Virus record (IMG/VR): IMGVR_UViG_3300020042_001030
Location: 1 to 32,655 of that record
Length of the DNA stretch: 32,655 bases
Reading direction: 5' to 3' (one strand)
From: a virus
Taxonomy: Duplodnaviria; Caudoviricetes
Shown here: piece after piece, positions 3,779 to 32,197 of the stretch
How the letters are laid out: every line of letters starts with the position of its first letter
How positions within the stretch are numbered: the first letter of the stretch is position 1
Translations under genes and position numbers: made by a program
Notes under the pieces: generated by a model
Seen by the model: only the letters and a program-made list of their open reading frames with translations
What the model was told of the DNA's origin: nothing
Database searches by the model: none

Positions 3779-4162
3779 ATGGCACACTTTGCAAAATTAG
3801 ATGAAAACAATGTCGTAATTTTTGTTACTGTTGGTCGTGACGAGGATAACGGCAAAGAAGCAGAATTGTCTGCACGTTCTGGAGATGTTTACAAGCAAAC
3901 CTCGTACAACACCTATGGCGGTGTCCATGCTAATGGCGGTACACCTTTGCGTAAGAACTACGCTGGTATTGGTTATACATACGATAGTCAGCGCGATGCG
4001 TTTATACCGCCGAAGCCATTTGCAAGTTGGGTTTTAAATGAAACCACTTGTCTATGGAATGCGCCAACTCCAATGCCAACTGATAATAAATATTACCAAT
4101 GGAACGAATCCACATTAGCATGGGTTGAATTTAGTAACACACCCGCAGAGGAGAACCAATAA
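3779..4162 (+). CDS. Conserved phage protein, partner of Gly-rich fibre
   Basis: MAHFAKLDENNVV...KQTSYNT...RKNYAGIGYTYD...DAFIPPKPFASWVLNETTCLWNAP pattern. Lies directly after the Gly-rich gene. Confidence 0.7.
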   Translation: MAHFAKLDENNVVIFVTVGRDEDNGKEAELSARSGDVYKQTSYNTYGGVHANGGTPLRKNYAGIGYTYDSQRDAFIPPKPFASWVLNETTCLWNAPTPMPTDNKYYQWNESTLAWVEFSNTPAEENQ

Positions 4163-7650: not shown

Positions 7651-10512
7651 ATGCCATTACAAAAACTACTGCTCAAACCCGGTGTAAACAAAGAAAACAC
7701 CCGATACACCAACGAGGGTGGGTGGTATGACTGCGACAAGATTCGCTTCCGCCAAGGCACGCCTGAGAAGATCGGTGGCTGGTCACAGATTTCTAGTTAT
7801 ACGTACGAAGGCACATGCCGCTCCCTCTGGTCATGGGCTTCTCTAAACGGAATAGTCTATGTTGGGGTTGGCACTTACTTAAAGTTTTATGTAGAGCAAG
7901 GCGGGGCGTATAACGACATTACGCCGATTCGGTCTTATGTAACGCTTAGTGGCCCGTTTGTAGCAATTGCCCCGCAAACATTTACAGTAACTATTGCGAA
8001 CCCCGCAGTGCTAACAGCCTCTTCTTTGGCTACCATAACAAATGGTATGGCGTTTACGCTTACAACCACAGGTAGCCTACCAACTGGGTTAACCACAGGG
8101 GTTACATATTACGCGGTTAATTCGTCTACCAACACTTGCCGACTTGCTTTGACTGTTGGCGGCACTGCCATTATAACAACGGGAACGCAATCGGGTACGC
8201 ACACATTAACATCTACAACGCTAACAGTTACTAGTTCAACACATGGCGCAGCAACAGGCGACTACGTTAACTTCCTTGGTGCAGTAGCTCTCAGCACGCA
8301 GGCGTTTACCGGAGTGACTTTAATTAATGTTGTTATTACTGGTATAGCTGGACAATTTTCTTGTACCGCTTCAGTATTGGCTGTGGGACAGCCTGTAACT
8401 ATTAGTGGTATTTTTGCTGGGACTGGATCAATAACTGGGTATGTCAGCCCAACCACATACTTCATTATTGCAACCAATGGGTCAACTACATTTACGTTGT
8501 CGGCTACTTCTGGTGGCTCAGCTATCACGACAACTGCTGGAACGCCCACAGGTTTAACTTACAGAGTAACAACCAACTTCACCCTGTTCTCAGCACTTGC
8601 ACAGAACACACCCGTTGTTCTCACAATATCTACAGGCGGCGCTTTACCGACCGGACTGTTGACCGGGGTTCAGTACTACATTAATGTGGTGTCGGGTACA
8701 ACTGTCAATTTTACTAACGTCCCTAACGGTGCGGCAATCAGTACATCAACGGTTGGCTCAGGCACATTCTCCTTGTATGTAAACAACGGGGTGACGGCGG
8801 AGGTACTAGACAGCAGTTTTGCTGTTACGGTCATTAACGCTAACTCGTTTACTATTGATACTTCAGTTGCGGCTGGTGTGTACGATACTGGCAATGGTGG
8901 CACAGTTAATGCCTACTACGAAATACCTGTCGGATACGACTCATCACAACCATTAACTGGTTGGGGCGCAGGTGCTTGGGGTTCTGGTTCTTGGGGTACG
9001 GGGCAGTCTAGTGTTGCGCCTGCACGTATCTGGTATCAGAACAACTTTGGTCAGGACTTGATCTTCGGCTACCGTGGTGGCCCGCTCTACTACTGGAACG
9101 CATCGATTGATACGCAGCTAAAGGCTTTCACTATTACTATTGCCGTTCCCGGCGTTGTAACTTTATCCAACGGCTCCCTTACTAATGGTACGGCAGTTGT
9201 CTTGGAGTCTACCGGCACTTTGCCAACAGGCTTGACGATTGGCACAACCTACTACACAGGCGGAGCATCAGGCGCAACGGTAAGATTGGCAACGACCTAC
9301 GCCAATGCTTTGGCAAGTACATTCATCACAACCACTGGCTCACAGACTGGTACGCACTACATCCTACCTAATGGTATTCCGGTTACATCTTTGGGTGGAG
9401 CTTCAGATGTTCCTGCCCTTGCAAATTTTGTAATGGTGTCTGATGCTAGTAGATTTACTATTTGTTTTGGTTGTTCAATCTATGCAGCCACAGACACAAC
9501 AATAGACCCCATGCTGATTCGTTGGTCTGACCAAGAATCCGTTACAAACTGGACACCCTTGGTTACTAATCAAGCGGGCTTTATCCGCCTATCACACGGC
9601 TCTGAAATCGTTACTGCAGTGCAGACTCGCCAAGAGATTGTTGTGTTCACGGATACATCGCTGTACTCCATGCAGTACCTTGGTGCGCCGTTTATCTGGA
9701 GCACACAACTCTTAGGTGACAACGTCTCCATAGCAGGATACAACACTGCCATCGTCGCATCTGGTGTTGTTTATTGGATGGGCGTTGACAAGTTTTATAA
9801 ATACGATGGTAGAACCCAAACTCTGCGTTGTGATTTACTACGACATGTCTATAGCAATATAAATCTCGATCAGCAAGCGCAGTTCTTTGTTGGTACTAAC
9901 GAAGGCTTTAATGAGATATGGTGGTTCTACTGTTCTTCTGGCTCCACAACCATTGATAGCTATGTAACCTATAACTACACAGAGGATTTGTGGGCTTACG
10001 GCAGTATGGCTAGAACAGCATGGCTAGACTCAGGTTTGATTACAAACCCTATTGCGGCTACGTATGTCTATAACCTTGTCTACCATGAGTACGGTGTTGA
10101 CGATAACGCTACAGGAACTGCACTTCCTATTGAGGCATACATCACTTCGTCTGAGTTTGACATTGGCGACGGACACAACTTTGGGTTTATTTGGCGTTTA
10201 ATCCCCGACCTTACGTTCCGTGGCTCGTCTACTACGGGGGCTACTCCGCAAGTTACGTTCTATCTGCTACCCATGCAAAACTCTGGCTCTGGGTACAACG
10301 ATCCAGTGGAATCAGGTAATCAATCAGTTGGCGGTACAAGTTATGCCAACGTAGCCCGTATCGGTACATACGAAGTAGATCAGTTTACTGGTCAAGTCTA
10401 CACACGGGTGCGGGGACGGCAGATGGCTATGAAGATTTCCTCTAATCAAGTTGGAACGCAGTGGCAGTTGGGTGCTCCTCGTATTGACATCAGACCAGAT
10501 GGACGTCGCTAA
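7651..10512 (+). CDS. Tail nozzle/stabilisation-type virion protein (beta-propeller-like) with inserted Thr/Gly-rich repeat domains
   Basis: N-terminal KPGVNKENT...GWYDCDKIRFRQGTPEKIGGW, DPMLIRWSDQE...NQAG, VYWMG, FNEIWWFY, ARTAWLD, C-terminal RVRGRQ...WQLGAPRIDIRPDGRR. Gene position precedes the ejection genes. Confidence 0.72.
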   Translation: MPLQKLLLKPGVNKENTRYTNEGGWYDCDKIRFRQGTPEKIGGWSQISSYTYEGTCRSLWSWASLNGIVYVGVGTYLKFYVEQGGAYNDITPIRSYVTLSGPFVAIAPQTFTVTIANPAVLTASSLATITNGMAFTLTTTGSLPTGLTTGVTYYAVNSSTNTCRLALTVGGTAIITTGTQSGTHTLTSTTLTVTSSTHGAATGDYVNFLGAVALSTQAFTGVTLINVVITGIAGQFSCTASVLAVGQPVTISGIFAGTGSITGYVSPTTYFIIATNGSTTFTLSATSGGSAITTTAGTPTGLTYRVTTNFTLFSALAQNTPVVLTISTGGALPTGLLTGVQYYINVVSGTTVNFTNVPNGAAISTSTVGSGTFSLYVNNGVTAEVLDSSFAVTVINANSFTIDTSVAAGVYDTGNGGTVNAYYEIPVGYDSSQPLTGWGAGAWGSGSWGTGQSSVAPARIWYQNNFGQDLIFGYRGGPLYYWNASIDTQLKAFTITIAVPGVVTLSNGSLTNGTAVVLESTGTLPTGLTIGTTYYTGGASGATVRLATTYANALASTFITTTGSQTGTHYILPNGIPVTSLGGASDVPALANFVMVSDASRFTICFGCSIYAATDTTIDPMLIRWSDQESVTNWTPLVTNQAGFIRLSHGSEIVTAVQTRQEIVVFTDTSLYSMQYLGAPFIWSTQLLGDNVSIAGYNTAIVASGVVYWMGVDKFYKYDGRTQTLRCDLLRHVYSNINLDQQAQFFVGTNEGFNEIWWFYCSSGSTTIDSYVTYNYTEDLWAYGSMARTAWLDSGLITNPIAATYVYNLVYHEYGVDDNATGTALPIEAYITSSEFDIGDGHNFGFIWRLIPDLTFRGSSTTGATPQVTFYLLPMQNSGSGYNDPVESGNQSVGGTSYANVARIGTYEVDQFTGQVYTRVRGRQMAMKISSNQVGTQWQLGAPRIDIRPDGRR

Positions 10513-11201: not shown

Positions 11202-12536
11202 ATGGCTGATTACGGTATAGGTGAATATTTATTAGCTGAGGCAGCCGGAGACGCTGCTATTGCCGATATGGTAGGTTTGTCTACTGCGGATTTAATCGGT
11301 TCTGGCGTTATTGAAGGCGTTGGCGCTGGCGCTGGTGCTTTTGGTGCCGCCGAAGCCGTTGGTGCCGCTGGTGCCGCTGAAGGTGCTGGTGCCCTAACTG
11401 CCGCCGATTTAATTGCTTCCGGTGCGGTTCCAAATATAGGTTCTACTGTTGCTTCTGGCGCTTTTGATAGTGCTGGATTTCAAGGCATTGACGCACTTGG
11501 AAATCAAATCATAGACCCTGTAACACGGGCAATCCAAGCGGGAAACATGGCTAATACAGGTATGACTGTACCTAATGCGTTCCAAGGTATTACTGAACTA
11601 GATGCCGCGCAAACTGCGGACTTGATGAAGAACATTGATCCTCGGATGATTGATATGGTTCAACCCGTTGAGGATGCGGCAAATGTAACTTCAAGAGGTG
11701 TAGATTTAGCAGGTAATGGTAATACTCTGCAAACACAGATGGATTTAAGCAATCGAGTTGGAAATATTAATCAAGTGCAAGACATGATGCCTGCTTTTAA
11801 TAGCGGGCCAGTTAGCGCCGTTGCAACTCCCGGATACTTAGACCAAGCACTTGCTCTTGCGGATAAGTACAAAACCCCCCTTATAACAGGCGCGGCTACT
11901 GCAGGTATTAAATCTTTACTAAGTGGGGATAAGCAGAAATATGGCATAAACCCAGAAGCCACAAAACCTTATAGCGGCCCGCTTTCCAAGTTTAGCTATA
12001 ACCCAGCGACTTACACCCCTGCATCAAATCCAGCACCAAACTACTACACCCCACAGTACAAACGCTATGTGGCAGGTGGAATGGCTAAGTCCGATTCAAT
12101 GTCGGATTTAATGGGTAGCAGGGATTCAATAGATAAGTACTTAACAGAGTATCAGTCTGACCCAGCTAGTGTCCATCAAAAAGCTAAAGCTGGCGACTAC
12201 AACGCCATGATTGCGTTAAACAAAATTAACCAAACCCCTAATCAAAATTATGCTACAGGCGGTATTGCCCAACTAGCCGTAGGCGGTAAATTGCTTCGCG
12301 GACAAGGCGACGGCATGAGTGACAGTATCAAAGCAAATATTTCTGGTAAGCGTCAGGCTAGGCTTGCAGACGGCGAGTTCGTAGTCCCTGCAGATGTTGT
12401 TAGCCACCTAGGTAACGGTTCTACCGATGCCGGTGCAAAACAGTTGTATAGCATGATGGACAAGGTACGAAATGCCCGCACGGGGCGTAAGTCTCAAGGA
12501 CGTCAGATAACACCGCAAAAATATATGCCAGCATGA
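11202..12536 (+). CDS. Internal virion/ejection-type protein
   Basis: Strong SD. Ala/Gly-rich N-terminus. C-terminal conserved GQGDGMSDSIKA...RLADGEFVVPADVVSHLGNGSTDAGAKQL motif. Confidence 0.65.
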   Translation: MADYGIGEYLLAEAAGDAAIADMVGLSTADLIGSGVIEGVGAGAGAFGAAEAVGAAGAAEGAGALTAADLIASGAVPNIGSTVASGAFDSAGFQGIDALGNQIIDPVTRAIQAGNMANTGMTVPNAFQGITELDAAQTADLMKNIDPRMIDMVQPVEDAANVTSRGVDLAGNGNTLQTQMDLSNRVGNINQVQDMMPAFNSGPVSAVATPGYLDQALALADKYKTPLITGAATAGIKSLLSGDKQKYGINPEATKPYSGPLSKFSYNPATYTPASNPAPNYYTPQYKRYVAGGMAKSDSMSDLMGSRDSIDKYLTEYQSDPASVHQKAKAGDYNAMIALNKINQTPNQNYATGGIAQLAVGGKLLRGQGDGMSDSIKANISGKRQARLADGEFVVPADVVSHLGNGSTDAGAKQLYSMMDKVRNARTGRKSQGRQITPQKYMPA

Positions 12537-15433: not shown

Positions 15434-18400
15434 ATGCCACGCGTAACGATACCCGGAGTTGGGGATGTAATGTTCCCCAACAATATGCCACGTGATGAGA
15501 TCATGTCACGTGCTGAGGCCATGCAAGCACAGGCAAGTCAACCTATGTTTGACCCAAGAGATTTGCCAACTGGAAAACTTATTAGTGGTGGTTTTTCTCG
15601 TGGGTTGGAGGGGTTAAAGGGTACGGCACTTGATTTGATTCCTGCATTTGCAGGGTCTATATTTGGTAAAAACGATTACGCCAAAGAACAGCTAAAAGAA
15701 TACCAAGACCGCATGGCTGCGGCTGAAGTTGAAAATCCCGCCGCGTATGACTCGTATAAAAAGATACGTGATGCAGGAGACATCCTTCCGTTTGCCGCTG
15801 AAACAATAGGTGAAGTCGGTCCTGATATTCTTGGCTTCTTAACCGGTGCTGGCGCTGGTACTTCTATTGGTAAACGACTTGCTACGTCTGGGGCTAAGAA
15901 AGCTCTGGAGACTTCACTACCCGCACGGGTTGCTGAGAAGGGTTTAACCGCAGAAGCCGCTACAGCCTTAGAAAAACGCGCCTTACGCAAAGCCGCAACT
16001 ACTGGTGCAAATGTAGGTCAAATAGTAGGTGTTGGCGGGGCATCCGCTGGATTAAATATCCCAGACACGTTTAACCAAATTTATCAAGATACTGGTAAGT
16101 TAGAGCCGGGAATAGCAATAACCATTGGTTCCTTGGTATCGGCACTTGATACGTTCCTACCCGCTAGGATGTTGGCACAACTTGGCCCATCTGGTAAAGC
16201 CCGGATTGCGGCTGAGATGCTTCAAAAATCTACAGTTGTACCCACAACTTTTAAGAAGGCATTTGCTGGCGAAGTATTAAAGACCGCTAGTGGCGAGTCT
16301 TTGACTGAAGGTGGACAACAAGCCCTACAAATTCTTGCTTCTCAGATAGCAGGGGACAAAGACCCGTTCTTCTCACAGAAAAATATTGATGAGATTATTA
16401 CGTCATCCCTTAAAGGCTTTATAGGTGGTGGTGCATATGGTGCTCCCGGCGCGGGCATTGAAGCTAGTCGTATTAAGTCTGAGCGTAATGCACAGGTTGC
16501 TCAACGCGAAGCCGATGCAGCTGCACTAGCGGCGCAACAAACAACACAGGTTCCTCCACCTCCCCCACTACAACAAGTTGAAACTGACCCCAATAAGATT
16601 ACTAGGGAAGTTGCACCGGGAATTACTTACGTGCCCGCTACTGGTGTATATACACAAACTCCTACTACCACTGCACCACAAATTGGTCGGGAAATACCGC
16701 GTCCAACACAAGAGACAGGCCCATTAGAGATGGTGGGCATGGGCGCACCTACGCTTGATATTAACCAAGGCGAGTTGTTTAACCGAGATTACTCGTACCA
16801 ACCCGCTGAACAGCAAACTCAAGAAGCTGCAGCCGAACCAGCACCAGCCGAATTTGGCACAGTGCTTGATGCTTCTGTCTTGCAAAGAACTGGTCTCAAA
16901 CCACAGTCTGGTTTCTTTAAGCAACTTCTTAACAAGGACATGTCTAATCCAGAGGATCAAGCCGCTGTACGTGCCGTACTTGTACAAATAAGAACCAACC
17001 CAAACTTATCTGAATCTACAAAGCAAGCCATCGAGGGGGTGGCTATGCAAGCGTTTGGCGCACTCGCTAAACAACAAGAGATGTTTGGCCCCCGTGGAGG
17101 CATACTTAAAGGAGCCGATGTTGGAAGAACAATTTCTAGACCTGTCAGTGAACCAACTGGAACAAGCGTTCCAACTACTGTCGAACCCACAAGTATTGAC
17201 CAAACCGCCGAAGGAGTTGAGCCGTCTGAGCAGGGGGGAGTGGGAAGTGCTGTCCGATCTGCTTTCGAGCCTGCAGTTAGAGAAGAAGTACAGCCAGATA
17301 CATTAACCCAAGAAGCACCCGCTCAAGAAGACGCGCTTGCCGTTGCCAATAGAGTTGCTGCACTCAGTGATGAAGAAATACTTAGCAACATGGCACAGTC
17401 CAAGACGTTGCTCAATGCTGTCATTGACAAACTTGGCATAGAGATACCCGGTCACACTAAGAACCGCAACGATAAGAACGCGCTTGTAACGAAGAAATAC
17501 TACATACAAGAGCACTTAAAAGGTTTGCAAGAAGAAACGCCAACGCAGGAAGGCCCAACACAGGAAGAACAAGATGCTATCCAAGCCGAACTGGATGCGG
17601 AACTGGGCAAAGAAACTGCGCCTGTTGTGGCGCGAGTCGCTCCCGCTAAGGAGGGAACTACTGAAGGAGTTTCTGAAGGAACTGATAAAGGCGGCACTAA
17701 GGCAGTGGCTGAGCCTGTTGTTAAAGCTACCCGTGCCAAAAAGAGTAAAGCACCGAGCCCTGCTAAGGCTACTGAAACTGTAGACGTCGACAAGTTGCTT
17801 GAAGAAGCAGATGAGCTTCCTTTAGAGATTCCTAAAAAAGCAAAGTTTGATGTAAGTGGAGGCTACACAGGTTTTGCTAAAAATGACATAACCAACATTG
17901 ATGACAGCATTGCCGTAACAGATTTGTTGCGTACCAAAAAACTAACCGAAATTGCTAAAGCTGCAAAAACTTATTTTGGCAAGATGCCTCGTTTGGTAGA
18001 TAACCTGCTGAACATGGCGTTTGATATTGTTTATGAAACCCCACAATTTAAACGCACAGACGAATCTTCTGAAGAAGCACAGTTCTTCAAAGGTATGAAT
18101 GGTGAAAAAGCTAATGATGCGTTTAAGTGGGTGCAGAACAACCTAAGCCCAGAAACTAACAAAGCGATACGTGAATTTATTCGTCGTTTTGAAATTGCAC
18201 GGGATACGACTAACGACCAACAGTTTATGGATTTGATTCGGGACGGTATTTCCGGCACCAGAGAAAACTACGACGACGAAACCGTTAAGAGTTATATCAG
18301 AGCGCAAGAAGCAGATGCCAAGACTAGGAAGCTTCTCGACAATGCTGTATCTCGTTTAGCGCATAGCCTACACCCAAGCATTATTTCTATGCTTCAAGCG

Positions 18401-21400
18401 GGTGACTTACAGACCGCGTTACGCTTGTTGTCCGCTAGTTCAGACACATTTATATCTACTACCGCTGCTAAGTTAGCAGGTATTAGTCCCAACACTAAAG
18501 TAGTTATAGAGGAAGACCTCGTTGACGAAAACGGTAAACATGTGCCGGGTTACTTCAATCCACAAACTAATACTATCCATCTAGACTCCGTGACCGGCAT
18601 GAACAGCCATGTGTTGCTACATGAGTCTGGACACTCTGCTATGTCGCACGAGCTGGATAACCCCAATAGCGTGTTGGCTCGCCAACTTCAGCAAATACTT
18701 GATAAAGTAAAAGATAGTCTTGGCACTGCCTATGGTGCGTCTGACGTACATGAGTTTGCTTCTGAGGCTTTGGCAAATAAAGAGTTCAGAGCAAAACTGC
18801 AGTCTATCTATCCTGATGGTGGCAACATCTCCGCATGGGATAAATTTACCCGTGCTGTAGTTAACTTCTTCCGTCGCTTAGTGGGTAAAGAATCTCGTCC
18901 GCTGACTTCTGCCTATGACGAAGTTGACCGCATACTATCTGCAATCCTTTCCCCTGCACCTGATTCACGTAATGCTGGTGTGCTGTATGCACAGGCGGCT
19001 AACAAGAGCGCCCAAGTATTCTCATTTACCGACAGAATGATTAACGCTGTGCCGTTCTTGGGTGAGAACCAAAAAGACGCACTAAGTGGTGGTATCGCTG
19101 TAGGGTCTGAAGCCGCACGCTCTGCGCTCTTTTCTGTACTACCTATGCACGCACTGGGCGAAGTAGCAGAAAAGGTATTCCCCGGCTTAGGCATGAAGTT
19201 CAATCGGTTGATTAACGAACGTGCTGGTTATGAGAACAAGTTAAACAACGGTATTGATGCCGCAGTACGCGAGGCTAAAAATGCTATTCAAGCTAAACCA
19301 CAGCAACAAGACGCCTTTAATCGTATTGTTAACGACAGCACGATGGCTGAGGTAGACCCGACTAAGCCACTAGAAACTTATTCAGAGTATTGGCTTACGC
19401 ATCGCAAAGGCGATCAAGAAATTCGCCGGTCGTTCAAAACCATTACTGAAAGAGACGCCGCACTTGAGGCTATAAATAAATCCGCTACTGGTGAACACCA
19501 AGCACGGGGTGGTAAAGGTAGAGTACGGGTGGCATTTAAGTCAGGAGACGCTTCTGTTGAGAATGTAAACGCATGGAAAGACCTTAACTCGCGGTATAAC
19601 AAACTAGACAAAGTTTGGCAGGACTTGTATGTCACTATGCGTAATGCCAATGGAAAGATGTATGACGAAGTCAAAGCGGCAATCGAAGCTCGTATTGACG
19701 AGACTGATCTAGACGGCAAAACCAAGATATTGGTCAAACAAGACATCATGAAGAAGCTCGCTGAGCAAGGTATGATAGACCCATACTTTGCGCTCGGTCG
19801 TGAAGGTAAGTATTGGTTAGCCTCAGACTACACAGATAAGAACGGGCAGAAACAATTTACCGTTGAGGCATTTAAGTCCCCACGGGAACGCTCACGCCGC
19901 CAAGAAGAACTTAAAGCACTAGACCCAAATGCACGGGTTGATGTGTACGCTAACGCAGATCAGATTAACTATCGCAATGCGCCGTCGGGTTCGTTTGTAA
20001 ACAGCGTCTTGAAAATTATGGAAACCAACGGTGTGCCAGAGCAGGCAATCGACGAGACCATGCGCTTGTTTATTACTACCCTGCCTGAGACTGCATTTGC
20101 TAAATCATTCCAAAAACGTAAAGGTAGAGCCGGTGCTTTGACCGATACGATTGGTGTATTTGAGCGCAAGATGCGCGGTACTGCTCATCAAGTATCCAAC
20201 ATGATGTACAACCCCAAACTGACTGGGGTCGTGGATTCTATGGACATGAAGACCAAAGAAGCCGCACAAAGTGGTAAAGGTAATGACCTAGAAATAAGAT
20301 ACCTTAACGAGTTTAAGAAGCACCTTAACTATGTGAAGAACCCAACCAAGAATGACATTGGTAGCATTTTGGCGTCCGGTGCATTCTTCTACACACTAGG
20401 CTTCAACATTTCTTCCGCGCTGGTCAACATGGCTAACGTGCCAATGATTGTGGCTCCGTACCTTAAAGGAAAATACTCCGATGCTAATGTTGCAGGGGCA
20501 ATTGGAAATGCTTCTAAGGTGTTTTTAGGTAGTGGGCGTAAAGCCGCTATGCCTGTAATCGGTGCCGATGGTAGAACCACAATGATGGATGTGATGCCGT
20601 CAATCTCTAACTATGCACCGGATTCGGTTGAAGGTAAAAAGTATGCAACTTTGATTCGTATTGCCGATGAGCAAGGTCAGTTAAACCGTTCTCAGTTGTA
20701 TGAGATCATTAGCGGAGACACCCGCACTGGTCCGCTTGCAAAGATAAATGCTATGGCTGGTTGGGCTTTCCACCATGGTGAGCGTATGAACCGTGAAGTA
20801 ACAATGCTTGCGGCGTATGACCTTGAGTTGGCTAAGCTAAAAAAACAAGGCATCATTGGAGAAGCGGCTGAAGTTCAAGCTGCTAACAATGCAATATACA
20901 TAGGCGAACTTACTAACGGTGGTATATCTGCGGCGGCTGCGCCACGTATAGCGCAAAGTTCTATTGGCAAGTTGTTGTTCATGTATAAGCGCTACGGCGT
21001 GTCTATGTACTACATGATGTTTAAGACTGCCAAAGAAGCGTTGAAGAACGCAGACCCCGCCGTTAGAAAAGCCGCATGGCAACAACTTGGCGGTATCGTG
21101 GGTATGTCTGCGCTTATGGCGGGTGTACAGGGTATCCCGATGTTCGGTCTAGCCTCTATGGTCTACGCGTTGTTCTGTGATGATGACGATGATGATTTGG
21201 ACACCGTGACTCGTAAGGGTCTTGGCGAGTTCATGTACAAAGGTCCGATTGAATACTTCACCAATCTTGCAGTTGCAAGCCGTATTAGTATGAGTGACTT
21301 GATTATTCGAGACACAAAGGGCGGCTCTAACGCAGGTACTTTCTCGCAACAACTTCTTACTGCAATGGGTGGCCCCGCAGTGGGTGTGACTGATCGTATA

Positions 21401-21919
21401 CAGCGTGGTTACAGCAAGATAGCTGAAGGTCATTTTGAGCGTGGTTTAGAAGACATACTCCCTGCTTTCGCGGCTAACATGCTTAAGGCAGGGCGTTATG
21501 TAACCGAAGGTACCCAGACTTTGCGTGGTGATGCAATCACTGGAGATGTTAGTGCGTGGAATGCAGGTGCACAGTTCTTTGGGTTTGCGCCAGCCGACTA
21601 CACCCGACAACTAGAAGAAAACTCTAGGTTAAAAGGTGTTGACAAATACACTAACCAGACTGGTACTAAGTTGCGTCAAAAATGGAACCTTGCACGCACA
21701 GTTGGCGATGCAGAAGGTATGAGCGACGCTCGTGATGAACTTCTAAAACTTGGTGCCAAACACCCCGGACTTGGGCTTAACGCAGGAACTATCAACGAAG
21801 CTCTACAAGACTCGGCTGATGCGTACAACAGAGCAACCAAAGAGATGGTGCATGGTGTACGGTTCTCTAAGAAGATGGCTAAGGAACTTAAAGCCGACTC
21901 TGCTGAATACGACCAGTAA
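15434..21919 (+). CDS. Large polyvalent internal virion/ejection protein with zincin metallopeptidase motif and PLxRFG/LPD39-like C-terminus
   Basis: TAAGGAG SD. Hydrophobic Gly/Ala-rich N-terminal region. PGYFNP...LLHESGH...HEFASEA zincin signature near 18545-18770. DPYFALGREGKYWL, then a helical C-terminus (LGFNISSALVN, ERMNREVTMLAAY). Confidence 0.75.
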   Translation: MPRVTIPGVGDVMFPNNMPRDEIMSRAEAMQAQASQPMFDPRDLPTGKLISGGFSRGLEGLKGTALDLIPAFAGSIFGKNDYAKEQLKEYQDRMAAAEVENPAAYDSYKKIRDAGDILPFAAETIGEVGPDILGFLTGAGAGTSIGKRLATSGAKKALETSLPARVAEKGLTAEAATALEKRALRKAATTGANVGQIVGVGGASAGLNIPDTFNQIYQDTGKLEPGIAITIGSLVSALDTFLPARMLAQLGPSGKARIAAEMLQKSTVVPTTFKKAFAGEVLKTASGESLTEGGQQALQILASQIAGDKDPFFSQKNIDEIITSSLKGFIGGGAYGAPGAGIEASRIKSERNAQVAQREADAAALAAQQTTQVPPPPPLQQVETDPNKITREVAPGITYVPATGVYTQTPTTTAPQIGREIPRPTQETGPLEMVGMGAPTLDINQGELFNRDYSYQPAEQQTQEAAAEPAPAEFGTVLDASVLQRTGLKPQSGFFKQLLNKDMSNPEDQAAVRAVLVQIRTNPNLSESTKQAIEGVAMQAFGALAKQQEMFGPRGGILKGADVGRTISRPVSEPTGTSVPTTVEPTSIDQTAEGVEPSEQGGVGSAVRSAFEPAVREEVQPDTLTQEAPAQEDALAVANRVAALSDEEILSNMAQSKTLLNAVIDKLGIEIPGHTKNRNDKNALVTKKYYIQEHLKGLQEETPTQEGPTQEEQDAIQAELDAELGKETAPVVARVAPAKEGTTEGVSEGTDKGGTKAVAEPVVKATRAKKSKAPSPAKATETVDVDKLLEEADELPLEIPKKAKFDVSGGYTGFAKNDITNIDDSIAVTDLLRTKKLTEIAKAAKTYFGKMPRLVDNLLNMAFDIVYETPQFKRTDESSEEAQFFKGMNGEKANDAFKWVQNNLSPETNKAIREFIRRFEIARDTTNDQQFMDLIRDGISGTRENYDDETVKSYIRAQEADAKTRKLLDNAVSRLAHSLHPSIISMLQAGDLQTALRLLSASSDTFISTTAAKLAGISPNTKVVIEEDLVDENGKHVPGYFNPQTNTIHLDSVTGMNSHVLLHESGHSAMSHELDNPNSVLARQLQQILDKVKDSLGTAYGASDVHEFASEALANKEFRAKLQSIYPDGGNISAWDKFTRAVVNFFRRLVGKESRPLTSAYDEVDRILSAILSPAPDSRNAGVLYAQAANKSAQVFSFTDRMINAVPFLGENQKDALSGGIAVGSEAARSALFSVLPMHALGEVAEKVFPGLGMKFNRLINERAGYENKLNNGIDAAVREAKNAIQAKPQQQDAFNRIVNDSTMAEVDPTKPLETYSEYWLTHRKGDQEIRRSFKTITERDAALEAINKSATGEHQARGGKGRVRVAFKSGDASVENVNAWKDLNSRYNKLDKVWQDLYVTMRNANGKMYDEVKAAIEARIDETDLDGKTKILVKQDIMKKLAEQGMIDPYFALGREGKYWLASDYTDKNGQKQFTVEAFKSPRERSRRQEELKALDPNARVDVYANADQINYRNAPSGSFVNSVLKIMETNGVPEQAIDETMRLFITTLPETAFAKSFQKRKGRAGALTDTIGVFERKMRGTAHQVSNMMYNPKLTGVVDSMDMKTKEAAQSGKGNDLEIRYLNEFKKHLNYVKNPTKNDIGSILASGAFFYTLGFNISSALVNMANVPMIVAPYLKGKYSDANVAGAIGNASKVFLGSGRKAAMPVIGADGRTTMMDVMPSISNYAPDSVEGKKYATLIRIADEQGQLNRSQLYEIISGDTRTGPLAKINAMAGWAFHHGERMNREVTMLAAYDLELAKLKKQGIIGEAAEVQAANNAIYIGELTNGGISAAAAPRIAQSSIGKLLFMYKRYGVSMYYMMFKTAKEALKNADPAVRKAAWQQLGGIVGMSALMAGVQGIPMFGLASMVYALFCDDDDDDLDTVTRKGLGEFMYKGPIEYFTNLAVASRISMSDLIIRDTKGGSNAGTFSQQLLTAMGGPAVGVTDRIQRGYSKIAEGHFERGLEDILPAFAANMLKAGRYVTEGTQTLRGDAITGDVSAWNAGAQFFGFAPADYTRQLEENSRLKGVDKYTNQTGTKLRQKWNLARTVGDAEGMSDARDELLKLGAKHPGLGLNAGTINEALQDSADAYNRATKEMVHGVRFSKKMAKELKADSAEYDQ
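17118..17306 (+). CDS. Candidate overprinted 62-aa helical protein in +1 frame inside the giant gene
   Basis: AAAGGAG precedes ATG-TTG at 17118. Product MLEEQFLDLSVNQLEQAFQLLSNPQVLTKPPKELSRLSRGEWEVLSDLLSSLQLEKKYSQIH. The host frame here is a low-complexity linker. Confidence 0.45.
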   Translation: MLEEQFLDLSVNQLEQAFQLLSNPQVLTKPPKELSRLSRGEWEVLSDLLSSLQLEKKYSQIH

Positions 21920-21946
21920 AAAAACCCCCGATGTTTAGTCGGGGGT
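21918..21946 (-). terminator. Intrinsic terminator at the convergence point (U-tract on minus strand)
   Basis: 8-bp stem ACCCCCGA/TCGGGGGT (21924-21931 / 21939-21946), 7-nt loop. The A-run at 21918-21924 gives a U-tract on the - strand. Confidence 0.85.
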
Positions 21947-21997
21947 AATAGGGAGTTCTCAAGAAAAGAGAAGCAAACTGCAACAGGAGAATGTCGC
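21918..21997 (-). ncRNA. Candidate ~80-nt sRNA with anti-Shine-Dalgarno loop
   Basis: TATACT -10-like box at 22009-22004. Hairpin GCGAC-AUUCUCCU-GUUGC, hairpin UUCUC-UUUUCUU-GAGAA, CUCCCU linker, then the terminator. The seed is complementary to several phage RBSs. Confidence 0.5.
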
Positions 21998-22009
21998 GGC
22001 GCCAGTATA

Positions 22010-22222
22010 TTACAGAATTCTCCAAAAGCGCATACCTAACTTCCCGCTTTCTATACGCTCGTAGCCTTTAAGCGTTAAATTTTTATAATCTGCAATCTTT
22101 TGCACTTGTTTACTCAAGATTGGTAAGTTAACAGCGGGTACAAAAAACGACATCCCTATATCTAGGGAGTCCCAATTTATGCCAATAACCACACCGTCAG
22201 GGCAGACTTGCCCTTCACGCAT
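22010..22222 (-). CDS. Small conserved phage protein, possibly DNA-binding
   Basis: INWDSLDIGMSFFVP...GMRFWRI pattern. ATG at 22222 overlaps the primase stop (coupled). The ORF-track start at 22282 is less likely. Confidence 0.6.
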   Translation of the reverse strand: MREGQVCPDGVVIGINWDSLDIGMSFFVPAVNLPILSKQVQKIADYKNLTLKGYERIESGKLGMRFWRIL

Positions 22223-25070
22223 CACCTTCAAGAACGGCTTTGTGACCTGCGGCGGCTGCGATTTCTTCTTCAACGTCGTCATCTAAAAAGTCCTTGCAGT
22301 TAATCCATAGCACGTCTAGGGACGGCAGATTCATACGGGTACCTTTGCCCATACGCTTCTTCTCTATCTTTGATTTAGAACGTCCACGTTTTAGTGCATC
22401 GACAAAGCCTTCGTAGTTGACCTGCTTCTTCACGCACCAATCCCTGAGCGGACTAAGGTAGATATATAGCATCTTTATGTCGTATTCGTAGCGTGCCATG
22501 TACGACACTCTCGGCGTAGCATCCGGAATAATCAAATGGTCTGCATCATCACGCTTCAATGTGCGGGAATCGTCTGTGCTCTTAATACGCAAAATGTTGT
22601 TGTAGTTCTCAGCCAAAAAGTTAGTGAGCGTTGTCTCGGCGTCGACGTCCATAGATTTAACTTGATCTTGCACCCCGCTAACTACACCCTTGAGCCAAGT
22701 GACCACAGCCTTGAGGTCATAGTCCACTAATCCAGCCCGCTTTGCCGCCATCAATCCCATGATGCCATCTGCCGCTAAGACCGAATGAAACCGAGCGTCA
22801 GGCCCAAACCCACACATCTGATCTAGTTTGTGTTGGGTAGATTTGTACAAAGCCTTAATACCGGCAATGTCCTGCATCACGTACTGCATGTATGGCAGAT
22901 ATGCGTGCCCGTAGTTGTTTAGAAGTGCGTCACTTAATATGTCAGTATCGACCTTGTTGAGTCCGGGGACGGGTTTGGCACGTACCTCTAACAAACGCAT
23001 GGCTTCACCTTTAGGCAGAGCCTTGTAGGTTCCCATCTTCTCCATCATGGATGAGTTGCCTGTACTAACTGCCGCTTGTTTCCATGGCTCGCCCCGGATT
23101 CGCTCTGAGTTGGAGTTCGGCCCCATGCGATTGCGTTGCATACCTGACGTGTACTGATACAGAAAGTCGCTCAACTCCTTGGCGGTGGAGTTGGTCATCT
23201 CGTCCATAGGTAGGAAGATGTTGTTGTAGAGTTCCGCACGGTTCATCTTGGATGCCATAGTGTCGGATTCTTTAAGCACAATCTTGGTCGGGTCGCCCCA
23301 AATACTAGCCCCCGCATACAACGCAGTTGTCTTGCCGATTCCTGAGTCCGGACTGAATATGTGCATCAACGCCCCATTTACAGGGGTGAAGTCGGTAAAG
23401 ATAGAGCCAAAAGATAGTCCGATTACAAACTGGTGCATCTCCATTCCGGGGCGGTTGTAGAAGTTCATGGCTTCTTTCCATGCCTCTAGCGTTCCTTTGG
23501 GTTGAAATGCGTGAAACAGATGTGCTGTAGCTGATGAGGGTGGATTGTGGTCTACCCGATCTGCACGAATTTCTTTATCCCCTAGCACGAATGCTTCGTG
23601 CTTATCATCTATCCAACCAAATTGTCTGTGAGCCGTGTCCGCTCTTGCGTTAAATTGCATGTGGTTTACCCATGTTGTTATGTATGACATTAGTTCGTCG
23701 GTTCTAATCATCGCCACGCCGTTGGATGACATATGCTTACGCAGTTCATCCTTAGAGGTAGCAGACGCAAGAGGTATCGTAAATTCCCGCACCCCGTCAC
23801 GAGGAAGATGTAGCCTTACGACTACCGCCTCACCCACAGCAGAGTCCAGTAACCTACGAGTTACGTACATATCGTTGTGATAGATCATCACTTCGATCTC
23901 GTCTTCTTGCTTGATAACCCGCTTAAAGATACCTCCGTTCTTCCCCCTGAAATAAGGTTCGGGATACTTCGGTATAACGTATGTTTGTGTGTGCCCTTGA
24001 TTCACATTCGCCGGGGCATCTTCTACGATGTTATCTTCCTCAGTTGCTTCTTGCACTTCTCGACCAAGCACAATCGGCGATTTGATTGAGCCTTTGCTTG
24101 GGCATCCGTCGCAACCTTTGGGGTTGTATTCTTCAAACTTAGCGCAGGTATAAGGGCCGCCCTTGATACCACGTACTTTCCTGTCAGCAAATTGTGGGCT
24201 GTACTCAGGGTGCCCACTAGAAATCTTGTCAATAGCCTTGTCTGCGTCTACGCAAAATTTAGCGATAGATAAGCCTGCTCTCCACATCGGTTCCGACATG
24301 GTTGCTTGGTTCTCGTAAATATATCCTAGTTGTTGGCATCCTTCTCCCTTCACAGTTCTAATCATGATGGTCTTGAACCGATTTGTGTAGTTCCCAAGGA
24401 TTGCCTTGGTTACTTCGTCCATCTCTCCACGTGGGATGTAGGGCCGCCGCTCAATGAGTGGGTCACCAATAACATCTTTTAGTGTGTCAAGCTCATACGG
24501 TACGGAACCCTGGCCTAGTAAACTGACAGGGCGTGCCACGTCGTTTTTGTAGTTTAGAGTCCCCGGAACCCGTAAGATTCGTACCGCATCCGCCGTTACT
24601 ACGTGGTCAATGTGCAGGTCATGGTCGTCACACATACTCTTTAACTTCTCAGCCAAAGGCAACCATGTTTCACGTGAAACGGGTTCAGTAAATGTCCAAT
24701 AGACATGCACACCCCCACCGGAGTTAACCAGCGTAGGCTTCGGCATCTTGGTCGCCTTGCAGAACTGCTTTAGGGCAGTGATAGCTTCGGCTTGTGTCGC
24801 GTATGGTTTATCTTCTCCGCAGTCTATGTCTAGGAACAACGATTTCAGTTGTTTGACGTTAGGTGCTTTGCGTGACTTGCCATCCTTGAATGTTGCTAAT
24901 GCGTAGTACGCATCGTATCCCTCGTTTTTCAAATTCTCGGCTACTGCTACTGCGTCTTCCACTGTGCGGAAGAACTTTTGTACAGGCTTGTCTGACCCAT
25001 TTTTTAGCCCAACTATGCAGTAGTATCCGTCGTCCCCGAGGACTTGCTGTAAAAATTCTAAATTGTCCAT
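22215..25070 (-). CDS. Primase-helicase (AEP/RepB-like primase, PriCT-like and Zn-binding region, DUF927 / Cch-like helicase)
   Basis: LFLDIDCG, VNSGGGVHVYW, RILRVPGTLNYK primase motifs. SEPMWRAGLSI and C-x8-C-x2-C. RQFGW, SGIGKTT Walker A and MDE Walker B. ATG at 25070 follows GGGTGG. Confidence 0.87.
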   Translation of the reverse strand: MDNLEFLQQVLGDDGYYCIVGLKNGSDKPVQKFFRTVEDAVAVAENLKNEGYDAYYALATFKDGKSRKAPNVKQLKSLFLDIDCGEDKPYATQAEAITALKQFCKATKMPKPTLVNSGGGVHVYWTFTEPVSRETWLPLAEKLKSMCDDHDLHIDHVVTADAVRILRVPGTLNYKNDVARPVSLLGQGSVPYELDTLKDVIGDPLIERRPYIPRGEMDEVTKAILGNYTNRFKTIMIRTVKGEGCQQLGYIYENQATMSEPMWRAGLSIAKFCVDADKAIDKISSGHPEYSPQFADRKVRGIKGGPYTCAKFEEYNPKGCDGCPSKGSIKSPIVLGREVQEATEEDNIVEDAPANVNQGHTQTYVIPKYPEPYFRGKNGGIFKRVIKQEDEIEVMIYHNDMYVTRRLLDSAVGEAVVVRLHLPRDGVREFTIPLASATSKDELRKHMSSNGVAMIRTDELMSYITTWVNHMQFNARADTAHRQFGWIDDKHEAFVLGDKEIRADRVDHNPPSSATAHLFHAFQPKGTLEAWKEAMNFYNRPGMEMHQFVIGLSFGSIFTDFTPVNGALMHIFSPDSGIGKTTALYAGASIWGDPTKIVLKESDTMASKMNRAELYNNIFLPMDEMTNSTAKELSDFLYQYTSGMQRNRMGPNSNSERIRGEPWKQAAVSTGNSSMMEKMGTYKALPKGEAMRLLEVRAKPVPGLNKVDTDILSDALLNNYGHAYLPYMQYVMQDIAGIKALYKSTQHKLDQMCGFGPDARFHSVLAADGIMGLMAAKRAGLVDYDLKAVVTWLKGVVSGVQDQVKSMDVDAETTLTNFLAENYNNILRIKSTDDSRTLKRDDADHLIIPDATPRVSYMARYEYDIKMLYIYLSPLRDWCVKKQVNYEGFVDALKRGRSKSKIEKKRMGKGTRMNLPSLDVLWINCKDFLDDDVEEEIAAAAGHKAVLEGDA

Positions 25071-25085
25071 AGCCACCCATTGTTA

Positions 25086-25160
25086 GGTGGGGGTACTCGC
25101 TACTTCCGGCAGTCAGGAGTCCAATCTAGACTTGCCAGCATCCGCTTTCCCCCCGAAACC
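25086..25160 (-). ncRNA. Candidate structured RNA (long hairpin with loop-E-like motif) upstream of primase-helicase
   Basis: Minus strand GGGGG-GAAA-GC-GGA-UGCU-GGC-A-AGUC...GACU-GCC-GGA-AGUA-GC-GAGUA-CCCCC: nested pairings with GAA opposite AGUA. Confidence 0.5.
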
Positions 25161-25165
25161 ATTAA

Positions 25166-26074
25166 TTAAGCATCGTCCCATTCGCCAACCAAGTCTTCTA
25201 ACTTGGGTTCATTGGCTACGGGTGCTTTCTTGGGTGCGGCTTTCTTTGGTTCATCAACTTCCTCAGCTTCTACCTTTGCGGGCTTGGCTTTAGGGGCTTC
25301 TTGCGCTTCTGCTTCGGGTGCAAACAAGGAGGGTTTTGGCCTGTCCTTGACACCATCGGTTTGTGCAACAGTCATTGTGATTGCGCTGACTGCTTCGGGT
25401 GAGTCCTTGAGTTGTTGGACTGTGTTGAACTCTTCCTCGGTCACGGGGCGCACAGGCTTGAACACCAATTTAGGTGTAGGGCTTGCAGTATCAAAACGCA
25501 TCTCGGTCACAACACCAGTAATAGGTGTGCCGTGGTTCTTCAAATGGCGAGCATAGGCTTGCAAGGGTAACTTGCCCTTCTCACCATCACCAAACACAGA
25601 TGTTGGGGGCAACACTAGTTGGTAGACTTCTTGTTTTTCCACTTCACCATCAAGCACGACGGCTAAACGCTGTTGGTAACGGCATGCACGGCTATCGCCT
25701 TGACCGGAACCCTTGATGTTTTGTGGGCAACTCAAACAAGTAGCTGACTGCTTGTTCTCTTCCTTGACCTTTACATCGGGACGTTGGCTATCTGCTGACC
25801 AACATGTCGGGGATACGGCTTCACCTTCGCTATAAGTTCCTGCGTAGTAGATACGGGAAACTTTCGGCGCGGCTTTGATGATGACAACATTCATCGCACG
25901 CTCTTCTGACACGCGGTATTCTTTACCGCCAATGAACTCACGAAATACTCCGCCCTTGATACTGATACGACGTGAACCTAAGCTCTCTCCAGCTAGGGCA
26001 TTCGTTGCATCATCTGCGTTTGCGTTCTTGAGGTATGCGGGTAGTCCGCCTTTGAAAAGTGCTAAATCACTCAT
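25166..26074 (-). CDS. Putative single-stranded DNA-binding protein (Cys/Zn-containing, acidic C-terminal tip)
   Basis: RISIKGGVFR, PTCWS.D, CLSCPQNIKGSG...RAC. Ala/Pro/Lys linker, ends EDLVGEWDDA. AAGGAG SD supports the ATG at 26074. Adjacent to the primase gene. Confidence 0.6.
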   Translation of the reverse strand: MSDLALFKGGLPAYLKNANADDATNALAGESLGSRRISIKGGVFREFIGGKEYRVSEERAMNVVIIKAAPKVSRIYYAGTYSEGEAVSPTCWSADSQRPDVKVKEENKQSATCLSCPQNIKGSGQGDSRACRYQQRLAVVLDGEVEKQEVYQLVLPPTSVFGDGEKGKLPLQAYARHLKNHGTPITGVVTEMRFDTASPTPKLVFKPVRPVTEEEFNTVQQLKDSPEAVSAITMTVAQTDGVKDRPKPSLFAPEAEAQEAPKAKPAKVEAEEVDEPKKAAPKKAPVANEPKLEDLVGEWDDA

Positions 26075-26087
26075 TTCTACATTCTCC

Positions 26088-26360
26088 TTAAATATCATCG
26101 TTGGGGTTAAAGTTTAAAGTCATTTGAGTAGAACCCTGTGGGGGTTTTACCGTAAGACTTCCGTCTGCTTCTTCTCTCACAAGCGTTCCGCCGTTTAGGA
26201 CTCGCATCGCCTCTTCCACTTCGCTAATCTTGAAACGGTAGACACCGCCAATCTTTAATGAGGGGATTAGGTCTTGCCGAATCCATGCGCGGACAGTCGA
26301 TATGGACACCGCAAAATGCTTTGCCACACTTTCTATCGGAACAAAAGATTCATCAACCAT
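26088..26360 (-). CDS. Excisionase-like helix-turn-helix DNA-binding protein
   Basis: IESVAKHFAVSISTVRAWIRQDLIPSLKIGGVYRFKISEV is a winged HTH of the HTH_17 type. Confidence 0.8.
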   Translation of the reverse strand: MVDESFVPIESVAKHFAVSISTVRAWIRQDLIPSLKIGGVYRFKISEVEEAMRVLNGGTLVREEADGSLTVKPPQGSTQMTLNFNPNDDI

Positions 26361-26772
26361 TTTTACTCCTTTTTATGGTCACGGAATATTCCGCATTCGC
26401 GTTAAGCCCCGGCGGAAGCACGTCGGGGTGTTCTTCTAAAAATGCCTTCATATTGGTTTGGTGAAGTCGCTTCTCCAATAGTTCCGGCACACCATGTTCA
26501 AGTATGAATTTGCCCATGGATTCCCAGTCGTTCGTTGAGTACGTCGTCCTTACGGTGCGATACACAACTCCGGCTTCGGTTCGCAGACTCTCAGCGCCAA
26601 TGACTTTCATGTGGTCAAGAATCGCTGTCTTGACTGTCTTCATGCCGTCTTCAACCTTGGCGATTTCCGCTTCTAGTTGATGGGTGAGTTCTGCTTTTTT
26701 GTCCCGCATCTTGATATAGACACGGGTAAGTTTTTCTAAAGGCACTTCTGCCTGTACTGTAGCTTCTTCCAT
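26353..26772 (-). CDS. Conserved phage protein, Gam-like coiled coil plus beta domain
   Basis: YIKMRDKKAEL coiled coil, LRTEAGVVYR, DWE...LLEKRLHQTNM...PPGL. ACAGGAG SD. Confidence 0.6.
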   Translation of the reverse strand: MEEATVQAEVPLEKLTRVYIKMRDKKAELTHQLEAEIAKVEDGMKTVKTAILDHMKVIGAESLRTEAGVVYRTVRTTYSTNDWESMGKFILEHGVPELLEKRLHQTNMKAFLEEHPDVLPPGLNANAEYSVTIKRSKNG

Positions 26773-26831
26773 TTACATTCTCCTGTTTTAAAAATACGAT
26801 AGCGGTTTGTTGTTCTCACTATCTTCCCTCT

Positions 26832-26860
26832 ACTCTACTATCAAATTCTACCTTAGTCAA
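26832..26860 (-). promoter_or_regulatory. Sigma70-type promoter driving the Gam-like / HTH / SSB / primase genes
   Basis: TTGACT (26860-26855), exactly 17 nt, TAGAGT (26837-26832), followed by a ~55-nt leader with a 7-bp hairpin (26798-26823). Confidence 0.6.
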
Positions 26861-28391: not shown

Positions 28392-28414
28392 GATTCTCCT
28401 GTTTTTATAAAGCA

Positions 28415-32043: not shown

Positions 32044-32197
32044 TTTTGTTCTCCTGTTGTTTAAAAATAGGGGACTGTTTTATTGCTTCATACTTTGCTT
32101 CTTCGTACCCAATATCAAAGGCATTCATAGCTAGAGTAAAAGCGTTCCCGTCTACGCCTGTTATTCGTAACAAGTTTGCTAAGTCTTCTTTTTTCAT
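32024..32197 (-). CDS. Small hypothetical protein (57 aa, missing from ORF track)
   Basis: Translated by hand: MKKEDLANLLRITGVDGNAFTLAMNAFDIGYEEAKYEAIKQSPIFKQQENKNEVPEV*. ATGA-coupled to the upstream ORF. Confidence 0.6.
   Translation of the reverse strand: MKKEDLANLLRITGVDGNAFTLAMNAFDIGYEEAKYEAIKQSPIFKQQENKNEVPEV

Follow-up and report, generated by a model that had tools for sequence, protein, structure and literature searches.

Organization of the locus and anatomy of the unit

The stretch of DNA that we analyzed (hereafter, the window) is a 32.7-kb virus record that is about 51% complete. Its plus strand carries tail, lysis and virion genes, the last of which is a 2161-aa gene ending at 21919. 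The minus strand carries genes for DNA polymerase A, an exonuclease, an SNF2 helicase, a DUF7307 protein, an HTH protein, an SSB-like protein and a DUF927 primase-like protein, and a small ORF. A short minus-strand unit sits where the late half of the plus strand and the early/replication half of the minus strand converge. A first-pass annotation of the window had proposed that this unit encodes a trans-acting RNA aimed at the ribosome-binding sites (RBSs) of early genes.

The unit begins with a -10 box, TATACT (22004-22009), which stands directly behind the TAA of the small ORF and 6 nt before the predicted +1. In most relatives the box is preceded by TGTGA, an arrangement of the extended -10 type. 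From the putative start at G21997, the predicted small RNA of about 80 nt covers 21918-21997. Its 5ʹ hairpin, GCGACA-UUCUCC-UGUUGC (21980-21997), shows an anti-Shine-Dalgarno (anti-SD) loop and contains the seed ACAUUCUCCUGUUG (21981-21994), which is complementary to early RBSs. Half of the seed is paired in the stem, and opening it in the window costs about 5.9 kcal/mol. A second hairpin, UUCUC/GAGAA (21956-21972) with the loop UUUUCUU, is followed by CUCCCU and by an intrinsic terminator (21917-21946, stem 21946-21924), which has a U tail on this strand only and overlaps the stop of the convergent 2161-aa gene. Every coordinate that had been given for the box, the hairpins and the terminator was reproduced on the minus strand. 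The stem of the first hairpin has 6 pairs rather than 5, and the open loop is UUCUCC.

The small ORF upstream (22010-22225, minus strand) encodes 71 aa from the ATG at 22225, or 90 aa in its longest form, and its stop abuts the -10 box. It had no Pfam or PHROG match. Its product ends in G-x-R-x-W-R. The ORF stays beside the unit across the family, and its final codons would hold the -35 region.

A generic promoter scan found no -35/-10 pair at the unit, so the promoter call relies on the conservation of the -10 box. Folding energy preferred neither strand (25 vs 24 of 51). Lake-water RNA libraries contained contigs 99% identical to the unit region, one of which covers 21770-21968; the four RNA-labelled runs analyzed consist of short assembled contigs that cannot resolve a discrete transcript. 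A U-tailed terminator for the late strand was not found at the convergence in the window (21917-22010, plus strand) or in the relatives G002-G004, and late transcripts may therefore read through the unit as perfect antisense.

Conservation of the unit in related loci

Two primase searches gave 101 loci, of which 74 were used after 27 were dropped as duplicates or as cut before the primase end. The unit was found in 69 of the 74 loci, with primases 41-100% identical to that of the window, and its length ranged from 45 to 85 nt. The calls were automatic for 65 loci, by hand for 3 and by eye for L069. Among the five loci without a call, L059 is truncated within the terminator, L050 and L095 stop short of the unit, and the unit is missing from L089 and L093. 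For the comparisons, 68 loci and the window were grouped into 44 clusters at less than 90% primase identity.

The sequence TAnnnT stood directly behind the small-ORF stop in 39 of the 44 clusters; its first T, its A and its last T were present in 40, 41 and 43 clusters, respectively, and the neighboring positions were variable. In L025, the -10 box moved with the unit across an upstream insertion of about 50 nt, and in L069 the small ORF is missing and the box stands directly behind the primase stop. These two arrangements indicated that the box belongs with the unit rather than with the small ORF.

A stem of at least 5 bp starting at the predicted +1 or +2 was present in 36 of the 39 clusters that needed no hand placement, against 8.7±2.6 (maximum 16) in shuffled sequences. 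The arms of this stem were diverse (GCAAC, GUAAC, GACAG, ACAAG, GUGGC, UGAUGG). The conserved 5ʹ hairpin that had been suggested as a check of the proposal was therefore seen in relatives. The second hairpin, which had been described as part of the same unit, was kept in the close clade only. CTCC occurred in 41 of the 44 unit bodies and GGAG in 2, showing that the orientation is fixed antisense, and a T-rich tail followed the terminator hairpin on the unit strand only across the clusters. A covariance model gave one strong match per genome in the window, G001-G003, G006 and L221.

In a separate clade (L080, L081, L084, L086, L090 and L101), the unit combines a long stem bearing a UCCCC(U) loop with a terminator whose long loop contains GUUnCCGAGGC, and no target among the phages' own genes was found. 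In L089 and in L093 (genome G007), the unit and the terminator are both lost, while the early RBSs share the motif AGAAAGGA, which makes these loci a natural control. The RBS of the DUF7307 gene in G007 reads GGAGAAUGU. RBS uniformity can thus exist without the RNA, and the unit is dispensable because these two loci lack it.

This dispensability would fit a unit without function, in which an ordinary terminator stands next to either an inverted RBS copy or the RBS of a mini-ORF on the late strand. We regard this as the least probable of the readings weighed here, with hardly any chance of being correct, since it explains neither the conservation of the unit nor the co-variation of seed and RBS described below. 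The mini-ORF itself was rejected: in just 9 of the 44 clusters does an ATG follow the core by 4-10 nt, and there is no shared peptide.

Outside this family, the nearest primases of cultured phages were at most 29% identical, and blastn of the region returned only 25-nt chance hits. In Pseudomonas phage Rollin the corresponding genes abut without a unit. Rhizobium phage RHph_TM3_14A has a terminator, with no unit visible by eye and a model score that was not significant. A hairpin pattern scan of viral contigs was unspecific: model searches of 100 of its 120 loci gave 2 strong matches, both on contigs already in the set, and 2 marginal ones.

Pairing with early RBSs and co-variation of the seed

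In the window, the seed is the exact complement of four minus-strand RBSs, each just before a start codon. The main target is the RBS of the DUF7307 coiled-coil gene (gene 26772-26353), with 13 nt at 26775-26787. The others are the RBSs of the SNF2 helicase gene (11 nt at 28393-28403, start 28391), the Zn-ribbon gene (11 nt at 32049-32059, start 32043) and the SSB-like gene (10 nt at 26079-26088, start 26074). The Zn-ribbon gene had no homologues among the fetched loci. When the CUCCU core was kept and the rest of the seed was shuffled, pairing of at least 10 nt, which the real seed achieves at 4 of the 12 same-strand starts, occurred at 0.13 starts on average, and none of 300 shuffles reached 4. 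The four complements listed in the first-pass annotation were thus confirmed and are beyond chance. In four other genomes, 3-6 starts paired over at least 10 nt against shuffle means of 0.06-0.10, with at most 1 of 300 shuffles reaching the observed number. Matches of 10-11 nt were also found away from starts, for example at 18753-18763 and 8764-8773.

The HNH RBS pairs with the seed over 10-11 nt including G-U pairs. The late starts at 11202, 12955 and 15434 pair over 5 nt, as had been stated, but the late gene at 4162, which pairs over 7 nt, had been missing from that list. By our own estimate corrected for accessibility, the DUF7307 (-13.4 kcal/mol), Zn-ribbon (-10.0) and SNF2 (-8.4) sites took the top ranks in the window; the best late gene reached -6.6, the SSB-like site was weak at -5.5 and the HNH site reached -3.3 kcal/mol.

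Two of the target regions show a further feature. On the minus strand, an AUG followed directly by a stop (AUG UAA at 26772-26777, AUG UAG at 26074-26082) lies within the seed-matched spacer just before the true start. Elsewhere on this strand (about 25071-25092), in the window and its close relatives, a conserved CCCC(A)CC lies about 20 nt before the primase start and could pair with the unusual GGUGG SD of the primase gene.

The protein of the main target had been labeled Gam-like, a label that is weakly supported: it obtained a BFVD row "host-nuclease inhibitor" (E 1.8e-4), but its similarity to the Gam structure 2p2u (Z 4.9, rmsd 6.8, 72 aligned) was tied by generic coiled coils. Its Pfam match to DUF7307 is below the cut-off, and its confidently predicted fold consists of a long helix and a beta domain. 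The SSB-like label has modest support from an acidic WDD tail and a similarity to the gp32 core (OB fold; Z 6.2, rmsd 4.6, 147 aligned). Neither of the two target proteins had a clear match in PDB sequence or Foldseek searches.

We then compared cognate and non-cognate pairing across the clusters. Starts were chosen with a generic anti-SD tail, blind to the unit, and each unit was paired with the start regions of all clusters for each gene. For the DUF7307 RBS, the own unit formed 9.44 Watson-Crick pairs against 6.72 for units of other clusters (n = 43 clusters), corresponding to a z of 11.2 in permutations that ignore relatedness; at 70% clustering, z was 8.7 (n = 22). The SSB-like gene gave 6.0, and 4.6 at 70%. 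Signals were weaker for SNF2 (3.5 and 0.8), the polymerase (3.1 and 3.6) and the primase (2.9 and 3.4). An own advantage was absent for the HTH (z 0.4), HNH (0.0) and exonuclease (-0.6, by base count) genes, and also for two late genes (-1.3 and -0.7; n = 9 and 12). This result ruled out HNH, HTH and exonuclease as co-evolving targets. The HTH gene shows no signal although its SD is good and the two best targets flank it, so the pattern cannot be put down to a host-wide SD dialect.

The co-evolution of the seed with the RBS extensions that the annotation had suggested looking for was thus seen, above all for DUF7307. Among the targets that it listed, DUF7307 stood as the main one and the SSB-like gene as a weaker one, the SNF2 signal was lost at 70% clustering, and the HNH gene kept its G-U-containing pairing without any advantage of the own phage.

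In disjoint sister pairs, the own DUF7307 RBS was better by energy in 17 of 21 (p = 0.0013); by base count, 11 were better, 4 worse and 6 tied, which is borderline (p = 0.059). The HTH control gave 7 vs 13 by energy and 4 vs 9 by base count. The match reaches into the spacer between SD and start (3.3 nt against 1.6 nt when permuted), and the paired changes of seed and spacer sit on separate branches of a quick primase tree. Matched spacers include AGU (L014), AAUGGA (L028), AAUGAG (L029), AAUGAC (L025), AGAGA (L044), AGAAUC (L072), AACGAA (L061/62/75) and GGAAGAGG (L091), and matched changes upstream of the SD include AAUCAU (L070) and AACCAA (L079). Even the start codon is followed in one case: L062 has a GUG start and CAC in the unit, and L075 has AUG and CAU. 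In the clade of L062 and L075, the seed lies 3ʹ of the hairpin, not in its loop.

Pairing of at least 9 nt with the own DUF7307 start was found for 26 of 43 units, compared with 56 of 1466 distant non-cognate pairs. For L069 (10 nt) and L221 (13 nt, tied with another start), which were not part of the swap set, the best pairing was likewise with their own DUF7307 RBS. The L099 unit pairs instead with its own primase start over 13 nt. In 13 of 43 clusters, no match of at least 9 nt was present in the eight early gene starts.

When starts throughout the window and eight longer records were analyzed, pairing of at least 9 nt was found at 33 of 196 SD-bearing early-strand starts and at 1 of 175 late-strand starts, the sole late-strand match being a spurious ORF over the unit itself. 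These counts come from a simple ORF caller of our own, which is imperfect (it does not list the DUF7307 start of L032). In complete genomes, the distance between the unit and its targets is as much as about 20 kb, and the additional predicted targets include a DUF2201 metallopeptidase/VWA gene, a DUF3150-like gene and small early genes. The early strands of G001-G003 carry 4, 8 and 5 copies, respectively, of the 9-mer ACAGGAGAA, and the one reversed copy in each is that of the unit. The genomes of L076, L084 and L090 had no match genome-wide, and L091 had one.

The shared motif might be a protein site, either a DNA operator or the RNA site of a translational repressor. The unit would then be a further copy of it, or a decoy carried on RNA from late read-through. 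The close-clade motif is palindromic (AACA-GGAGAA-TGTT) and lies just downstream of promoter-like boxes, the late strand lacks a detected U-tailed terminator at the convergence as noted above, and bases flanking the pairing were neutral, with no enrichment of G-U over A-C (own 27:28, non-cognate 671:344). In other clades (L062, L075), however, the matched stretch is non-palindromic and lies over the start codon. The antisense orientation is fixed (41 vs 2), and transcription from a promoter into a terminator 80 nt downstream yields an RNA in any case. We consider a protein site very improbable.

An RNA that chiefly targets host mRNAs or serves as a general anti-SD damper, with the phage RBS match being secondary, is only a little easier to accept and remains quite improbable. 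It would account for the CU-rich core in 41 of 44 clusters and for the clade of L080/81/84/90/101, which keeps its UCCCC loops without own-gene matches, but not for the spacer portion of the seed, which tracks the phage's own RBS. In one cellular bin with a relative, 4 of the 8 copies of the 10-mer lay on the 55-kb phage contig of the 2.5-Mb assembly, the host assignment being weak. One relative (primase 78% identical) was in a bin labelled Candidatus Methylopumilus, a weak hint of the host.

A promoter-like TTGACT-N17-TAGAGT (26832-26860, minus strand) precedes the DUF7307 gene. It is not significant alone (5 sites found vs 8.6 expected), and similar boxes before this gene were visible by eye in relatives. 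With this site, the DUF7307 gene would head the transcript that terminates at the unit. The unit could then be the 3ʹ UTR of a DUF7307-HTH-SSB-primase mRNA that folds back on the SD of its first gene, limiting translation or marking full-length mRNA for decay. Such a cis arrangement has a precedent in icaR of Staphylococcus aureus, in which an anti-SD motif at the 3ʹ end pairs with the SD at the 5ʹ end, as described in the available part of PMC3868564, and the best target of the unit is indeed the first gene behind the promoter-like site. It leaves unexplained the conserved -10 box with a stem from +1, its retention in L025 and L069, and the matches at another 4-8 starts, at distances of up to about 20 kb. 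The icaR transcript is one monocistronic mRNA with no internal promoter described in that part of the source, whereas the unit has several targets and a conserved -10 box. We judged cis action as the sole explanation unlikely; it may add to action in trans.

Proposed action and comparison with known RNAs

We concluded from comparison of the sequences that the unit is a real and conserved phage RNA element that is not catalogued and is selected for pairing with the early RBSs of its own phage. That it is an independent RNA selected for this pairing is well supported, and of the trans-acting RNA first proposed, the selection for pairing stood through the co-variation, while the HNH target did not. 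It is fairly probable that this predicted RNA of about 80 nt acts in trans and keeps the 30S subunit from loading on some of the early genes of its phage.

Exclusion of the 30S subunit is established for anti-SD sRNAs in general. Host sigma-70 polymerase would start at G21997, and the open loop UUCUCC would nucleate on GGAGAA. The 6-bp stem would then open into a duplex of 10-14 bp over the SD and spacer, extending over the start codon in some clades, which would exclude the 30S subunit and block translation of the early gene subset. As genome copies multiply, the predicted RNA would build up and damp the synthesis of early/replication proteins, the DUF7307 protein first. Dosage-linked negative feedback is the role that we prefer, because a host-type promoter would fire from each genome copy. 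Late genes would be spared, since the generic core is all that their RBSs have in common with the early ones. The purpose of the RNA is the most speculative part of the proposal, and both an early-to-late switch and superinfection exclusion would be compatible with such feedback.

A broader idea, possible but doubtful, is a barcode-and-reader system in non-integrating phages. Early genes would carry a phage-specific SD extension, and one RNA would read it and shut the set down. Seed and barcode would drift together even between sisters (L028/L029, L062/L075, L014 vs its sisters). Such a system would control copy number through RNA and exclude superinfection in a self-specific way, with no need for a repressor protein, and late transcripts running across the unit could be its built-in antidote. 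In a search for the tyrosine integrase family PF00589, no member was found in 5 of 5 near-complete relatives.

Early-gene shut-off in phages relying on host RNA polymerase is poorly mapped. A compact RNA gene evolving in step with several RBSs would provide natural cognate and non-cognate seed-RBS pairs for a two-plasmid reporter in E. coli. With the unit, sequence alone is enough to predict early regulons of uncultured phages, and its seed-RBS pairs could serve as orthogonal translation switches.

Rfam gave no match at the gathering score for the window and 8 relatives. Seven weak hits at E<=10, such as PsrR1 (25 bits vs a cut-off of 42), were rejected as reflecting the terminator and the CU content, and the c4 antisense RNA (RF01695) was not among them. 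The c4 RNA is processed from a precursor, whereas the unit has its own predicted promoter and terminator. According to the available part of PMC12197685, c4 of P1/P7 is a phage-encoded, trans-acting RNA of 77 nt, with a loop-displayed complement to phage mRNA near the RBS, in which sequence differences give heteroimmunity. The unit likewise displays in a loop a complement to the phage's own mRNA near the RBS. The same part of that source gives the antirepressor mRNA of temperate phages as the c4 target, whereas the predicted targets of the unit are several early/replication RBSs. The unit thus works like c4 of P1/P7 but is not a member of the c4 family by Rfam or by target. PMC2864571, in the part available, lists c4 and Polynucleobacter-1 with Rfam numbers, and the unit matched neither Rfam family.

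The Cuckoo/CcsR/ar14 sRNAs, in the available part of PMC4615179, are chromosomal RNAs of Alphaproteobacteria with 2-4 hairpins, each with an invariant CCUCCUCCC. The unit resembles them in showing an anti-SD motif in hairpin loops on variable stems. Unlike them, it lacks CCUCCUCCC, is single copy, and has a variable seed that tracks the RBS of its phage. P22 sar, lambda OOP and aQ, lambda PreS and VP882 VpdS are phage small RNAs that tune development post-transcriptionally; they have single or host targets, and none is described in the available part of PMC12197685 as reading a motif common to a set of phage RBSs. No description of the unit RNA was found in the literature searched. In PMC10690425, which reports candidate structured RNAs of viruses, supplements 3-6 held no seed strings in the parts available, and file 4 also lacked three contig ids; a description may yet be in supplements 1-2/mmc1-3, which are probably alignments. 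As in trans-acting sRNAs in general, the unit is non-coding and has its own promoter and an intrinsic terminator, as judged by conservation only, and its seed-target complementarity is under selection, though not in all clades.

Two further features were noted in the window and in a relative. The 2161-aa protein of the window (15434-21919, plus strand) has LPD39 and DarB-like matches, and phages that are otherwise identical (L001 vs L003/L004) differ in the 3ʹ end of its gene, the switch lying exactly at the terminator. In the complete relative G002 (L230:1132-2814), a TPR and glycosyltransferase-9-like gene adjoins a methyltransferase-like gene.
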